Sequence record: ON470603.1 | Origin: Escherichia phage vB_EcoM-720R4 | Reading direction: 5' to 3' (one strand) | Length of the DNA stretch: 35,056 bases | Shown here: one piece after another, positions 25,359 through 30,056 of the stretch | Position numbering within the stretch: the stretch's first letter is position 1 | Layout: every line of letters starts with the position of its first letter | Notes under the pieces: model-generated | The model's input: only the letters and a program-made list of their open reading frames with translations | Told to the model about the DNA's origin: nothing | Database searches by the model: none | Made by a program: the position numbers and the translations under genes

Positions 25359-25748
25359 TCAGGCGGCTGCACCCGCCGTTTTCTCGTACTTACTGATAGT
25401 GATTTCGACCTTCCCTTCCGGGATAACCGGCCCCCACTCCACCAGCATTCTTTTCACCTGGCTGTCGTCCACCCACACACCCGCGTGGGTCAGGGCGTCA
25501 AACAGCGCCTTGTTATAGTTGTCCAGATCGCGAAGCCGGTTATCCGGAGGAAACAACACGATCTCCACTGAAGCTGGTGCCGACGTTGGTTTCGGCAAAC
25601 GACGTAACTGCTCAATGATGGCTGCACACGCTGCGCTCTGGAATTTTCGCCCCGCCGCGCTTATCAGGCTCTTACCTGCAAGCGCCCCTTTGTTGGGGTG
25701 TCGCCAGTACGTGTTCACGCTGGGCGGAAAAGGCAGTATTAGCTTCAT
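25359..25748 (-). CDS. rusA: RusA-family Holliday junction resolvase
   Basis: 129-aa ORF with DLDNYNKALFDALTHAGVWVDDSQV, typical of RusA; nin-region position. Confidence 0.8.
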   Translation of the reverse strand: MKLILPFPPSVNTYWRHPNKGALAGKSLISAAGRKFQSAACAAIIEQLRRLPKPTSAPASVEIVLFPPDNRLRDLDNYNKALFDALTHAGVWVDDSQVKRMLVEWGPVIPEGKVEITISKYEKTAGAAA

Positions 25749-26071
25749 ACTTTCAGGCCCCTCTCATGTAACCAGTGGGCTGCACGCAGCCTGGCGTTTG
25801 CCTCACCGGCAAGCAGTGCGCGGATAATCCCGACCGCCTCGCTGTCGTCGTCCTTCACCGCGGTATGAAGCGTGATGCCCCGGGCCACGCCACGCTTTAT
25901 CGTGATGACGCCTTTTTTCTCCAGTGCGCGAAGATGCTCCACCGCTGCATTCACTGAACGGTATCCCAGCATGGTTGCCACCTCCTGATTGGTTGGCGGG
26001 AAGCCACGTTCTTTCTGATAAGAAATCAGCATATCCAGCACCTGCTGCTGGCATTGAGTTAACGTCGTCAT
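25745..26071 (-). CDS. LexA-DNA-binding-domain-like protein lacking a protease domain
   Basis: 108-aa ORF; N-terminal LTQCQQQVLDMLISYQKERGFPPTNQEVATMLGYRSVNAAVEHLRALEKKGVI resembles the LexA winged-helix domain; no S24 peptidase region. Confidence 0.55.
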   Translation of the reverse strand: MTTLTQCQQQVLDMLISYQKERGFPPTNQEVATMLGYRSVNAAVEHLRALEKKGVITIKRGVARGITLHTAVKDDDSEAVGIIRALLAGEANARLRAAHWLHERGLKV

Positions 26072-26754
26072 GCCGCCATCTCCCTGACCAGTTTTTCTGC
26101 CTGCTGGCGAACCTGCGCCAGAAAGGCCTCACCACATGCCTCAAGTTCATCGCGCCCGATGTAGCTGATTGCCGGTCCCTTCCAGGTCTTGTCGAAAACA
26201 GCAATAGCACCAGCGAAGAAAGCGCCTGTCGGCACCTGCTTCTCATCCTTCGGGATAAACCAGGCAGGCAGTTCAAAACCAATACGCCCGCGAATAAAAG
26301 CAATATGATCTGCATCTTCCGGCCACCACACTTCGCTGGTGGCAGCTTTGATCAGGAAAACATAGCGCCCGCCTTTATCACGCATGGCACTGGCATGCTT
26401 CATGATGTAACGCATGCCGGTGATGTATTGCCCCTCATGCTGACTGGCGCGGCTGTATGGGGGATTACCAAAGGCAGCACCTTTAAGCTCCGCAAGGCGT
26501 TCTGACCAGTCATGCGCCAGCGCGTTGTCTTCCGCCGTGTAATACGCAGCACATTTGGCGTTATCACCGTCAGTGAACAGATCCAGAACAAACGGGCCAA
26601 ACAGGGTGTTAATTCCCCAGAAAATGTTGTCCGGCGTGCGCCACTGATCGCCCACTTCCTTCAGTTCATGGGCTGGTTTGTTCCGCAGTTCCGCCAGCGC
26701 CTGGCAATATTTATTACTCATTAAGCCCCCACGTAATTCCCTGAGAGATACCAC
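26068..26754 (-). CDS. phage Dam-like DNA N6-adenine methyltransferase (NPPY motif)
   Basis: GNPPYSR catalytic motif; an alternative start at 26721 (MSNKYCQ...) would abut the upstream gene's stop. Confidence 0.85.
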   Translation of the reverse strand: MVSLRELRGGLMSNKYCQALAELRNKPAHELKEVGDQWRTPDNIFWGINTLFGPFVLDLFTDGDNAKCAAYYTAEDNALAHDWSERLAELKGAAFGNPPYSRASQHEGQYITGMRYIMKHASAMRDKGGRYVFLIKAATSEVWWPEDADHIAFIRGRIGFELPAWFIPKDEKQVPTGAFFAGAIAVFDKTWKGPAISYIGRDELEACGEAFLAQVRQQAEKLVREMAA

Positions 26755-27215
26755 TCTTCACCTGATGCAGCCCGCTTACTGCTTTTCCGTAAACACCGTT
26801 CACGACGCGCCAGAAAATTGTTTCGTTCTGGCTGGGAGTGGCTTTCACGGAATGCCGCCATCCACACCGTTGCAGCACGACGGTATAAGCCCCTCGACTC
26901 CAGTTCTTCAGCCTGGCGGGTCAGGCACAAAATCACCCGGGGGTCGTTAGTGCCGACATAGAACTTGCGCACAGGTCTGGTTTCACGAACTGGTTGTGGT
27001 TCCGGCTCCTGCGCTCTCTCAGTCAGGCGCGAGAAATGTCTGCGTGTATCTCCTTCACAACGGTGAGCCACACGCCCACTCTGACGTAACTTGCTTGCTG
27101 ACTGCAGAACGCGCTGCCGTGAGTAACCTGCAAAAGCATCCGCAATGTCTCCGGAAGTACACCCCGGATGGGCTTCAATGAATTTCTGAACTTCATTCAA
27201 AAGACTCATGATCAC
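26721..27215 (-). CDS. PerC/Pch-family transcriptional regulator-like protein (YfdN-like)
   Basis: C-terminal region LESRGLYRRAATVWMAAF...RRERCL resembles the PerC-family motif; 164 aa. Confidence 0.6.
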   Translation of the reverse strand: MIMSLLNEVQKFIEAHPGCTSGDIADAFAGYSRQRVLQSASKLRQSGRVAHRCEGDTRRHFSRLTERAQEPEPQPVRETRPVRKFYVGTNDPRVILCLTRQAEELESRGLYRRAATVWMAAFRESHSQPERNNFLARRERCLRKSSKRAASGEEWYLSGNYVGA

Positions 27216-28153
27216 CCCCTGAATCCTGCCGGGATCTGGCTGTAGTCCACGTTGTCGTAACTGGATTTGAAGTACGGATCTTCACGTTTTTCTGTGTATG
27301 TGCTGACGGACGGCGATAAGCGCAGGGAAAGCTCATCCCATTTTTCCCGCAGCTTCGACGGGCTGAGCACGTTACGGCACCAGAACGGATCGCGGCTGAC
27401 GCGGCTGTACATCTCGCAGATTTGTTTGTGAGTACGACCATCCTGCACACACATCAGGCGAATTTCGTTTGCCCAGGCTGTCCAGTTCGGTTCTTTGGGA
27501 CGAACCACCTCGCCGTCACATTCGGCAGCCTGCTCGTACAGGGCGATGATTTTTTTCCAGAGCCACTGTGCGCAGGTCAAATCATCCTGCGTCCCCCACT
27601 GGCGTTTTTTAGGGCTGAATACAACCGCATCAGGATGGCGAGTTAAAAAATCCTGTTCAGCCGTCTGCGTGTCCGGTTGCGAAGCGTCCGGACGAGAAGG
27701 TTTTTTATCTGACGGATCATGTTTTGATTTTACTGACGGATCCCCGCCAGATTCTGACGGGTGAAAACCCGCTTTTTTGCCAGATTTCGACGCATCAAAT
27801 TTTGACGGGTCAGATTTTGATGCGTCAGATTTTGACGGGTCAGAATCTGACAGTTGAGAAAATGCCGCTGCCTGAAGCTTCGCAACGTTAAGCTGATAAA
27901 CATTCGACGCATTGCGGTTACCCTGGCGACGCGCCTTACGCGTTAACCAGCCTTCTGCTTCCAGCCGTGCGATAGCCGTTCTGACGGTACTCATCCCCGC
28001 GCCAATCTGGCGGGCAATGGTTTCAATTGATGGCCAGCACACACCTTCGTCATTACTGAAATCAGCCAGGCGGGCCATAATTGCCACGCTGGATAATTTC
28101 ATGCCTGACGCTGCGCAACCATCCCATACATAGCCGGTTAATTTAGTGCTCAT
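27212..28153 (-). CDS. replication initiation protein (O-like, HTH N-terminal domain, iteron-containing)
   Basis: 313-aa ORF with N-terminal helix-turn-helix region and a central Ser/Asp/Lys repeat linker encoded by DNA iterons; located downstream of cro and the CII/YdaT-like gene. Confidence 0.7.
   Translation of the reverse strand: MSTKLTGYVWDGCAASGMKLSSVAIMARLADFSNDEGVCWPSIETIARQIGAGMSTVRTAIARLEAEGWLTRKARRQGNRNASNVYQLNVAKLQAAAFSQLSDSDPSKSDASKSDPSKFDASKSGKKAGFHPSESGGDPSVKSKHDPSDKKPSRPDASQPDTQTAEQDFLTRHPDAVVFSPKKRQWGTQDDLTCAQWLWKKIIALYEQAAECDGEVVRPKEPNWTAWANEIRLMCVQDGRTHKQICEMYSRVSRDPFWCRNVLSPSKLREKWDELSLRLSPSVSTYTEKREDPYFKSSYDNVDYSQIPAGFRG
27722..27853. repeat. iteron array (about 7 direct repeats, consensus TCAGATTTTGACGGG) inside the O-like gene: candidate replication origin
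   Basis: Tandem 14-15-bp repeats read directly (e.g. TCAAATTTTGACGGG TCAGATTTTGATGCG TCAGATTTTGACGGG TCAGAATCTGACAG). Confidence 0.55.
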
Positions 28154-28501
28154 GACCGACCTCTATTTCCCTGAATTTACGACGAAACTGTTCGAGCGGA
28201 CTGAAGCACTCATGCTCATAGCCTTCGCGGAGGTAGATAACCCGTTGTGTTTCCGGTTCCCAACGAATGACTCTGACGGGCACTCCGTAGTGATCTTTGA
28301 ACCAGCGGTTAACTTGTCGCAAAGGACTGTCTCCTTCTGCCGGTTGAAATCCCCCACAGCCCACTCTGCAAAGCTGTGGGTTACAATTTCCCTGTCACCT
28401 GGTACATTCACTGCATAGCAATACTCCACCTTCGCTTTTCCACCCGGTACAGGAAGCGCAATCAGTTGCGAGCGACGGTAGTGTGTTGTTAAACTGTTCA
28501 T
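28143..28501 (-). pseudogene. small early gene apparently split by a frameshift at a G5 run (two overlapping ORFs, 28163-28501 and 28143-28364)
   Basis: The N-terminal half of one frame and the C-terminal half of the other both look protein-like; the frames switch at the C5/G5 run at 28351-28355. Confidence 0.35.
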
Positions 28502-29082
28502 GCGTTAGTTTCTCCACAACCAGAAGCAATCGACGCCACGACGCCCGGAGCTGCACACTCGCGGGCGTTACTCTTTTCCGGCGCACAAAAAACACGAAAT
28601 AACAGTGTTAAATGCTCCTGCCACTTCGCCATTACTTGGTAGCTGTTCTCTTCGATTTGCTCACGCTCAGCTTGGTCAATAACTCCATCAGCAGTTGCCT
28701 TGCGTAAGTACTGGGAATGCTTGCCAATCCATTCTATTGACTCCATCAGCCGCTGATTAATGTCACCATTGTCAATGTCATCAATGACCACCAGCGGCAC
28801 AAACACCCCATTACTACGACGGGCTATTGCATCTGTTACATGCCTGGTACCACTGGCATCCTGTAAAACCATGGCCCACTCAAGTGGAAAAATTTGATCC
28901 CCACCGCTACGCAGTCTGTTATGCAATTGATCTTTTGCTGGGGTGATATCATCAGATTTATACAAACCAAGAATTTCTGCTGCTTCCTCATAGCCATGAG
29001 GTAAATCAGCAATCGTTCTTCGTATTGCTGCCACCAGCCATGCTGGTTGTTTATCAACTTTCCATTCAGGTTCTTTACCCAC
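28498..29082 (-). CDS. YdaT-like / phage CII-like regulatory protein
   Basis: 194-aa ORF immediately downstream of the Cro-like gene; assignment mainly by position and loose resemblance. Confidence 0.5.
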
Positions 29083-29109
29083 GGTTAATTCCTCATTTCT
29101 GTGGTGTTT

Positions 29110-29307
29110 TTATGCCGCAGCACTGTTAGTCTTTTGATATAAAGACACGTCAACTTTCAGTTTCCCGTTAGTAATTTTTTCTAACTGGTACGCTCGGCCT
29201 TCAGGAATAATCTCAGGCCACTCTGAAACAGACGGATGCTTAATACCTAGGGCTTCGGCGGTTTTACAAACTCCGCCGAAATAATTAATCACGTCGGATT
29301 TCCGCAT
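29110..29307 (-). CDS. Cro-like repressor (YdaS/Cro family HTH)
   Basis: 65-aa ORF divergent from the CI-like gene; HTH-like segment GGVCKTAEALGIKHPSVSEW; RBS GGGAGA. Confidence 0.7.
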   Translation of the reverse strand: MRKSDVINYFGGVCKTAEALGIKHPSVSEWPEIIPEGRAYQLEKITNGKLKVDVSLYQKTNSAAA

Positions 29308-29402
29308 TTCTGTCTCCCGTTAAATTACGTTAAGCAGAAATGTAGGATATCCAACATACCAATGTCAAGAATCCTACATGGGCATGTGGTAGGATTGCCT
29401 AC
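29308..29402. promoter_or_regulatory. right operator/promoter region: PR-like promoter for cro (minus strand: TTGACA 29368-29363, TACATT 29344-29339), 17-bp operator TGTAGGATATCCAACAT (29341-29357) plus additional TGTAGGAT-type half-sites
   Basis: Divergent cI/cro intergenic region; near-palindromic operator with GGATATCC core; promoter hexamers read directly. Confidence 0.6.
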
Positions 29403-30056
29403 ATGATGAACATGAGTGATCGTATTCGCCAAAGGCGAAAAGAACTGAACCTGACACAACAAGCACTGGCTGATTTGACTGGTGTGAACCGTGTCACGGT
29501 TACTGGATGGGAAAAGGACGACTACCAACCAAATGGAGCCAACCTTCAAGCCCTAGCCAACGCACTTAAATGCGATCCTCTGTGGCTTGTTAGCGGAAAA
29601 GGCTCGCCTGAACCAAAGATAAATCTAAAACCTGAAATATTCGCAGTTAAAAAAGTCCCCCTCATCTCGTGGGTTCAGGCGGGTTCATGGACAATGACGG
29701 AGCCTGGTGTCAGGAAAGAAGATGCTGAAGAGTGGGTTTATACTACCGCCCTTGTATCAGAAATGGCATTTGCACTACGGGTCCGTGGTGATTCAATGAC
29801 CAATCCCCTCGGCTCACCATCGATACCAGAAGGTTCTATCGTTATCGTAGAGCCAGATATTATTGATACAGAGTGTATTAACGGAAAAATCGTTGTTGCC
29901 CATATCAATGGTGGGCAAGAAGCGACACTCAAAAAATTTGTTGAGGACTGGCCGAACAGGTATCTCGTCCCACTAAATCCTAACTATAAAACTATTGAAT
30001 GCGGTGAGAACTGCAGAATAGTTGGTCTTGTCAAACAAGTAATAATGGATTTTTGA
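29403..30056 (+). CDS. CI-like repressor (N-terminal HTH, C-terminal S24 LexA-like peptidase domain)
   Basis: 217-aa ORF with HTH (LTQQALADLTGVNRVTVTGWE) and a C-terminal domain with Ser ... Lys catalytic residues (GDSM ... TLKKF); RBS AGGA 7 nt upstream. Confidence 0.9.
   Translation: MMNMSDRIRQRRKELNLTQQALADLTGVNRVTVTGWEKDDYQPNGANLQALANALKCDPLWLVSGKGSPEPKINLKPEIFAVKKVPLISWVQAGSWTMTEPGVRKEDAEEWVYTTALVSEMAFALRVRGDSMTNPLGSPSIPEGSIVIVEPDIIDTECINGKIVVAHINGGQEATLKKFVEDWPNRYLVPLNPNYKTIECGENCRIVGLVKQVIMDF

Follow-up and report, generated by a model that had tools for sequence, protein, structure and literature searches.

A YfdN-type PerC-family gene directly downstream of an O-like replication initiator gene in a temperate Escherichia coli phage

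PerC, encoded on the EPEC pEAF/pMAR2 plasmid, and the EHEC proteins PchA, PchB and PchC consist of one domain of ~90–104 aa. Their genes belong to mobile elements and neighbour virulence genes (perAB; effector genes). Pch lacks a known DNA-binding domain, and it activates LEE1 solely by lifting the silencing exerted by H-NS, StpA and Hha, reducing the occupancy of H-NS in the process (PMC4764244). Activation of ler is confined to PerC and the group 1 proteins PchA, PchB and PchC, with little or none by PchD and PchE (PMC5931665, PMC6265319). LEE1 fusions are unaffected by the PerC-like genes that the islands EcCIEDL933 and EcCICFT073 carry, and EcCIMP1_025, another PerC-family protein, represses LEE1 (PMC11773190). 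The AraC negative regulators (ANR; Aar, Rnr and Cnr) are single-domain proteins of <10 kDa from genomes with AraC-type virulence regulators, have a predicted three-helix layout and, like Pch, act on H-NS; Aar and Rnr directly bind H-NS, Ler and AraC-type regulators (PMC5570504, PMC10148876, PMC4983702). The published ANR signature includes the pattern A-x3-E-x7-A-x3-W-x2-A, and its residues are A10, E14, A22, W26, A29, W43 and R47 (PMC4983702). An overlap between the two families was noticed earlier, when ANR matches were reported for a LEE1-repressing PerC-family protein of a phage-inducible island (PMC11773190). The E. coli K-12 member of the PerC family is YfdN, encoded in the cryptic prophage CPS-53 (KpLE1) and termed "the K12 unique PerC homologue" by Uhlich et al. 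(PMC5931665). Experiments on YfdN itself are limited, in the searchable literature, to overexpression screens, and the data are indirect. Glycogen accumulation was altered on overexpression of yfdN from the ASKA collection, filamentation is caused by a UTI89 fragment of several genes, the gene is listed in a CFT073 nitric-oxide transcriptome table, and a computed interactome lists the protein as uncharacterised.

We analysed a stretch of 35,056 nucleotides from Escherichia phage vB_EcoM-720R4 (ON470603.1; hereafter the window), which as a whole resembles temperate phages of the SfV/mEp460/vB_EcoM-689R6 type. The open frame that the first-pass annotation had placed at 26721–27215, without giving a strand, was recovered from the ORF list of the window on the minus strand, and the peptide ELESRGLYRRAATVWMAAF...RRERCL corresponds to residues 102–140 of its product. 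This product matches phrog_1324 ("transcriptional activator") over its full length (PHROGs; residues 1–161, E=5.9e-78). The DNA is 97–100% identical to yfdN of CPS-53, to SfV orf40 and to the mEp460 gene, and 100% identical to some RefSeq loci annotated yfdN, where the product is named "yfdN: PerC family transcriptional regulator". The homologues in K-12 CPS-53, SfV and mEp460, all within phrog_1324, have the same length and the same neighbours as the gene in the window, with an O-like initiator upstream and Dam, LexA-DBD and RusA downstream; no substantive difference was found apart from the GTG start used by RefSeq. By these matches, the ORF is a YfdN-type member of the PerC family from an SfV/mEp460/CPS-53-like temperate E. 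coli phage. The gene is thus already known, as a widespread and previously annotated prophage gene. yfdN DNA was detected in 2664 of 5426 complete E. coli genomes (~49%), K-12 included; further carriers are the phages SfV (where orf40 is annotated "unknown"), mEp460, Ayreon and Kati and a series of Stx2c phages, and the gene is also present in Salmonella, Citrobacter and Hafnia.

Two start codons have to be considered. The RefSeq CDS begins at GTG 27215, two codons earlier than ATG 27209, and yields a protein of 164 aa. This GTG overlaps the TGA stop codon with which the upstream gene ends and follows the Shine-Dalgarno-like sequence with zero spacer, whereas translation from ATG 27209 generates the N-terminus MSL..., which is common to nearly all homologues, and the equivalent of this ATG is the start annotated by the SfV depositors. 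Because of the Shine-Dalgarno spacing, the shared N-terminus, the choice of the SfV depositors and the missing spacer before the GTG, we consider ATG 27209 the most likely start and 162 aa, rather than 164, the most likely length (Table 1). Other frames overlap the gene. An out-of-frame 57-aa ORF (27023–27196, minus strand) matches phrog_2383, yet it is closed in all divergent homologues and was rejected as a gene; the overlapping plus-strand ORFs and the other overlapping minus-strand ORF are without a PHROG match.

Table 1 Features of the yfdN-like locus and of the early-right region (window coordinates)
Feature	Coordinates	Strand	Description
YfdN-type CDS	26721–27209	-	162 aa; most likely start ATG 27209, stop TAA 26723–26721; from ORF list, end sequences, phrog_1324 match and DNA identity
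Shine-Dalgarno-like AGGGGG	27216–27221	-	6 nt 5' of ATG 27209; within the final codons of the O-like gene; read from the sequence
N-terminal winged-helix domain	27012–27209	-	residues 1–66; predicted H3-13, H19-25, H31-44 and beta-hairpin 47–60; likely distantly Ren-like
Pro/Glu-rich linker	26943–27011	-	residues 67–89; pLDDT ~60; length and sequence vary in alignment A2
PerC/ANR-like three-helix (TPR-like) domain	26775–26942	-	residues 90–145
C-terminal tail	26724–26774	-	residues 146–162; conserved motif W-x-L-(S/A)-G-x-(Y/F)-x-G; low pLDDT
O-like replication initiator	27212–28153	-	313 aa; Pfam HTH_36 in N-terminal part; phrog_391 'replication initiation O-like', E=8e-136
Dam-type N6-adenine methyltransferase	26068–26721	-	downstream of YfdN-type CDS; Pfam Dam, E=1.2e-45; RefSeq annotation of identical locus
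LexA DNA-binding-domain-only protein	25745–26071	-	after Dam
cII/CP76-like gene	28498–29082	-	after cro; followed by DUF4222 ORF
cro-like gene	29110–29307	-	first gene after pR-like promoter
pR-like promoter	29339–29368	-	TTGACA-18-TACATT, 10/12 consensus matches; before cro; likely operon start
cI-like gene	29403–30056	+	divergent from cro-like gene, with the pR-like site between

The first-pass annotation had likened the C-terminal region to PerC-family activators, and profile searches bear this resemblance out. Residues 98–149 (26763–26918) match Pfam PerC (PF06069) with 36.2 bits (E=7.2e-9), which is above the gathering cut-off of 22.6 bits, and the same model is matched by all 37 members of the divergent family alignment described below. 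EPEC PerC (strain E2348/69, plasmid pMAR2) aligns with the protein at 37% identity over 46 residues (BLASTP, E=1e-6), and a profile comparison with EPEC PerC gave a probability of 97.6% (hhalign, E=2.7e-12). On these alignments the C-terminal domain is homologous to PerC and Pch, with which it shares the three-helix core. The homology is limited to PerC residues 5–55 and to positions 5–56 of the 90 in the Pfam model, and the C-terminal third of PerC is absent here, its place being taken by a conserved tail that belongs to the YfdN-type proteins. In contrast to the small single-domain PerC and Pch proteins, the 162-aa product does not cover the full PerC model and carries in addition an N-terminal winged-helix domain and a linker.

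The same core also resembles the ANR proteins. The C-terminal domain scored 23.7 bits (E=3.1e-5) against the NCBIfam ANR model NF033650, below its cut-off of 32, and 25 of the 37 family members match the ANR profile at E<=0.01 (best value, 4e-9). The first block of the ANR signature is reproduced exactly by A100, E104, A112, W116 and A119. An alignment by eye gives F132 and R136 the same spacing as W43 and R47, but one residue nearer to the first block, and C139 is displaced by one further residue relative to the cysteine at position 51 of the ANR signature. The predicted three-helix layout is likewise shared, whereas the two-domain protein of 162 aa exceeds the <10 kDa size of the one-domain ANR proteins.

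Among 1.84 billion cluster representatives, searched exhaustively, only 99 hits were obtained; they include full-length relatives of 24–48% identity, from which an alignment of 37 sequences (A2) was assembled. A2 retains four parts, namely an N-terminal domain, a linker whose length varies, the PerC-like core and a tail motif, and both domains persist down to 24% identity. The extra N-terminal extension that the first-pass annotation had seen is therefore a real part of the family: residues 1 to ~95, which the PerC match does not reach, are kept in these distant homologues. The consensus of the N-terminal domain reads ...FI..NPG.T...IA.AF......V......L...G...R......Y and that of the core A..LE..GL.RRAATVWL.AF..S.....R.....RR..CL, the PerC-like domain being the most conserved portion of the family. 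An AlphaFold2 model built from the family alignment had a mean pLDDT of 85.5, with residues 90–144 modelled as three helices at a pLDDT of 96–98, the linker predicted to be flexible and the tail predicted to be disordered. The tail motif recurs in some short PerC-like proteins (P0179, P0183 and P0199). No PDB sequence matched the full protein even at E<=10, and a Foldseek comparison with the BFVD viral models gave none at E<=0.001 and generic winged-helix matches only.

The modelled N-terminal domain has the layout of a MarR/ArsR-like winged helix, with three helices and a beta-hairpin wing, and is basic (pI 9.8). Its best structural match is the N-terminal domain of MotA, which binds protein and not DNA, and the winged-helix fold as such does not prove DNA binding. 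A distant relationship to lambda Ren emerged from the profile searches. The N-terminal domain matches phrog_142 (lambda Ren) weakly (E=0.0069), and the homologue P0208 matches the Ren PHROG with E=7.7e-4. In a family-against-family comparison (hhalign) of A2 with a Ren alignment of 14 sequences (A3), residues 1–63 were placed on Ren residues 1–62, so that both families align from residue 1; the match is weak, with 74% probability, E=2.8e-5 and ~16% identity. Ren is shorter (96 aa) and has no PerC-like domain, and its likeness to the YfdN-type protein is marginal, but it occupies the same slot directly 3' of the replication genes: lambda ren directly follows P, with overlapping signals. These observations suggest that the N-terminal domain is likely, although not proven, to be distantly related to Ren.

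The minus strand of the window carries, in order, the pR-like promoter, cro, the cII/CP76-like gene, DUF4222, the O-like initiator, the YfdN-like gene, Dam, LexA-DBD, RusA, KilA-N, DUF968 and Q. The YfdN-like gene thus lies in the early-right operon, directly downstream of a replication gene. ATG 27209 is situated only 2 nt past the TGA of the O-like initiator gene, and the TAA of the yfdN-like gene has one base in common with the ATG of Dam (TAATG). By these signals, translation of the gene is coupled to that of both its neighbours, the initiator upstream and Dam downstream. A consensus scan revealed the pR-like site as the sole strong sigma-70-like promoter upstream on the minus strand, and a search of 25500–29500 with Rfam at gathering thresholds yielded zero matches. 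The proposal in the first-pass annotation that the gene is transcribed together with the replication genes fits this arrangement. From the coupling and the position downstream of the pR-like promoter, delayed-early expression is therefore expected, and YfdN should be a delayed-early protein on infection or induction.

To see how far this arrangement extends, the gene context was checked around six distant homologues. Four of the six (29–48% identity) keep the local gene order as far as each contig extends, the recurring order, or the part of it present on the contig, being cI - cro - cII-like - (DUF4222) - initiator - YfdN-like - (methylase) - LexA-DBD - RusA - KilA-N - DUF968 - Q. A 4-nt overlap at the start of the YfdN-like gene occurs in at least three of these four contexts. 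The fifth context, on a short contig, retains the downstream order methylase - LexA-DBD - RusA, and in the sixth (P0147, 40% identical) a lambda-P-type loader gene lies directly upstream. In three of the six contexts (L008, L009 and L011) the upstream gene encodes the same single type of initiator, with HTH_36 and Phg_2220_C. In the six independent contexts, as in the window, the YfdN-like gene comes immediately downstream of the replication gene(s). The YfdN-type protein is thus a regular occupant of this slot, and its gene lies within a phage replication/nin region, in contrast to the virulence-gene neighbourhoods of PerC and Pch.

We infer, almost wholly from homology, that YfdN is a delayed-early regulator that acts through protein–protein contacts on nucleoid or transcription factors, and we assign this reading a probability of roughly 50%. 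In this mechanism, YfdN would be synthesised alongside the replication proteins after infection or induction, and its TPR-like PerC/ANR module would contact an H-NS-family or possibly an AraC-type protein rather than act as a classical DNA-binding activator. H-NS-family nucleoid proteins are proposed as the most likely targets, with AraC-type regulators as possible ones, because the studied relatives Pch, Aar and Rnr act on the nucleoid via protein contacts; binding of H-NS by YfdN is in this way extrapolated from relatives that are ~35–40% identical over ~50 residues. The basic winged-helix domain may provide targeting to DNA or to a partner. During lytic development, AT-rich DNA of the phage or the host would in consequence be silenced or transcribed differently; the model does not predict whether a particular promoter would gain or lose activity. 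A reprogramming of host transcription, as raised in the first-pass annotation, would be plausible. Phage-encoded H-NS antagonists include T7 gp5.5 (cited in PMC5570504) and others. YfdN would resemble them in its proposed mode of action, as a small protein made early by the phage that contacts H-NS and not DNA; the analogy is one of function only. Should YfdN modulate H-NS or AraC-type regulators when a prophage is induced, such induction would alter host silencing in a large fraction of E. coli strains, given that the gene is very common, being found in about half of the complete genomes, in Stx2c phages and in the serotype-converting Shigella phage SfV.

The position of the gene would also suit two other early functions. 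The alignment with Ren from the first residue, the phrog_142 matches and the lambda-like placement right behind the replication genes, with start and stop signals overlapping, are consistent with a Ren-like early protein that protects against exclusion or abortive infection by a resident prophage (Rex-type), to which the PerC-like domain has been added as a module. We regard this as unlikely: the likeness, itself weak, goes no further than a generic winged-helix fold, the part of the family that is conserved best has no counterpart in Ren, and the analogy predicts little. The coupling to the initiator gene could instead point to an auxiliary function in replication. The protein might, for instance, be an adaptor through which the O-like initiator recruits host DnaB, taking the place of lambda P in a phage without a helicase loader gene. 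Homologues of P, DnaC and DnaB were absent from the scanned early-right genes of the window, and the recurrence of the HTH_36 + Phg_2220_C initiator upstream of distant relatives is in line with such a role. However, P0147 follows a P-type gene, and the YfdN-type protein is therefore not a stand-in for P. Comparison of the YfdN-type protein with loaders revealed no similarity in sequence or fold, and its C-terminal domain is homologous to modulators of transcription and the nucleoid, which together make the replication role decidedly improbable.

The homology to PerC over the conserved core is genuine, Pch genes reside on prophages, and Uhlich et al. removed yfdN from their K-12 ler::lacZ reporter strain (PMC5931665), all of which would accord with an equivalent of PerC and PchABC that activates ler (LEE1) and switches on type III secretion upon prophage induction. 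A link to LEE had been implied by the first-pass annotation, and it is the least supported part of that reading. [quoted passage not shown] Further arguments against such a role are that the region shared with PerC ends at residue 55, that the gene is spread over nearly half of E. coli, including K-12, and over three other genera, and that it is conserved together with genes of the phage replication and nin-like type and not with effector genes. Most strains that carry a yfdN-type gene are not known to have LEE. The YfdN-type protein probably does not control LEE virulence genes, and a function as ler activator appears very unlikely. That the gene is a decaying or functionless passenger, with a PerC match of no consequence, might be suspected from the K-12 copy, which resides in a cryptic prophage, and from the many database entries that are truncated or frameshifted. 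This is extremely improbable, since homologues of 24–48% identity have preserved the two domains as well as the position of the start and the order of the genes, and since active phages such as SfV, mEp460 and Ayreon carry the gene.

Reading the protein as a Ren-like domain joined to a PerC/ANR-like domain makes the function of a gene present in half of E. coli accessible to experiment. A wider reading, which we put forward as speculative and rather unlikely, is that YfdN-type proteins represent a class of early factors of temperate phages in which the Ren-like winged helix tethers the PerC/ANR module, that this module would bind H-NS or AraC-type regulators at particular DNA sites or partners and so lift or redirect xenogeneic silencing during phage replication, and that PerC/Pch, ANR and Ren are stand-alone fragments of one ancestral phage module. 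If true, this would provide a first mechanistic handle on lambda Ren and on the opposite effects, activation and repression, that proteins of the PerC family can have.

The replication initiator gene directly upstream of the yfdN-like gene resembles lambda O and contains 4.3 copies of a 15-bp unit, CAGATTTTGACGGGT (+ strand), with further, looser copies of the unit located near the array. The same DNA encodes a peptide repeat, DPSKSDASKSDPSKFDASKS. The 15-bp repeats are probably the iterons of the phage origin situated within the initiator gene, an arrangement like that of lambda O, in which the iterons also lie inside the initiator gene.

Features in and around the yfdN-like gene, with their coordinates in the window
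Feature	Coordinates	Strand	Match or location
LexA DNA-binding-domain-only protein, 108 aa	25745-26071	minus	Pfam LexA_DNA_bind, E=2.9e-19
Dam-type methyltransferase	26068-26721	minus	Pfam Dam, E=1.2e-45
Site equivalent to the SfV dam promoter	26786-26812	minus	In the 3' portion of the yfdN-like gene
57-aa ORF	27023-27196	minus	Out of frame inside the yfdN-like gene; phrog_2383 match
Array of 15-bp repeats	27781-27844		Within the O-like gene, 27212-28153 (minus)

The 57-aa ORF matched phrog_2383, a family annotated as 'unknown function', over its full length (E=2.4e-44). We rejected this ORF as an overlapping gene because its frame was closed in all six of the divergent homologues examined; an open frame occurred only where the DNA was nearly identical, as in SfV. 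The phrog_2383 family looks like a mis-call that has been propagated rather than an overlapping gene. The database proteins P0020-P0036 and P0105 include many singleton 'fusions' of YfdN sequence with the neighbouring HTH_36 initiator, Dam or RusA. Since the stops and starts of the adjoining genes overlap, frameshifts or assembly errors most likely account for these entries, rather than real fusions. For the Dam-type methyltransferase, the PHROG-derived name 'phosphoadenosine phosphosulfate reductase' appears in several RefSeq records of phages, among them lambda NinC-type entries; this name seems to have been transferred from fusion proteins.

In the SfV record, the depositors marked the -35 and -10 signals of a dam promoter within orf40, which is the same gene as yfdN. 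A consensus scan reported no promoter-like site at the equivalent position in the window. Terminator-like hairpins identified by consensus scan between 22500 and 30200 numbered 20, compared with 8.2 ± 2.9 in shuffled sequence, and most of them lay within coding sequence or on the strand that does not carry the early-right genes.

A second domain architecture was found in P0181, a 214-aa relative from the representative library that has two tandem winged-helix domains ahead of the PerC-like domain. Along the phrog_1687 ('MarR family') profile, Ren matched positions 1-65 and YfdN matched positions 70-123, a pattern suggestive of a family in which Ren-like winged helices occur in tandem. The protein made up only of a LexA DNA-binding domain lacks the S24 peptidase domain; during induction it could mimic LexA or compete with it while being uncleavable itself. 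Wherever the contig extended far enough, its gene was located downstream of the YfdN-like gene.
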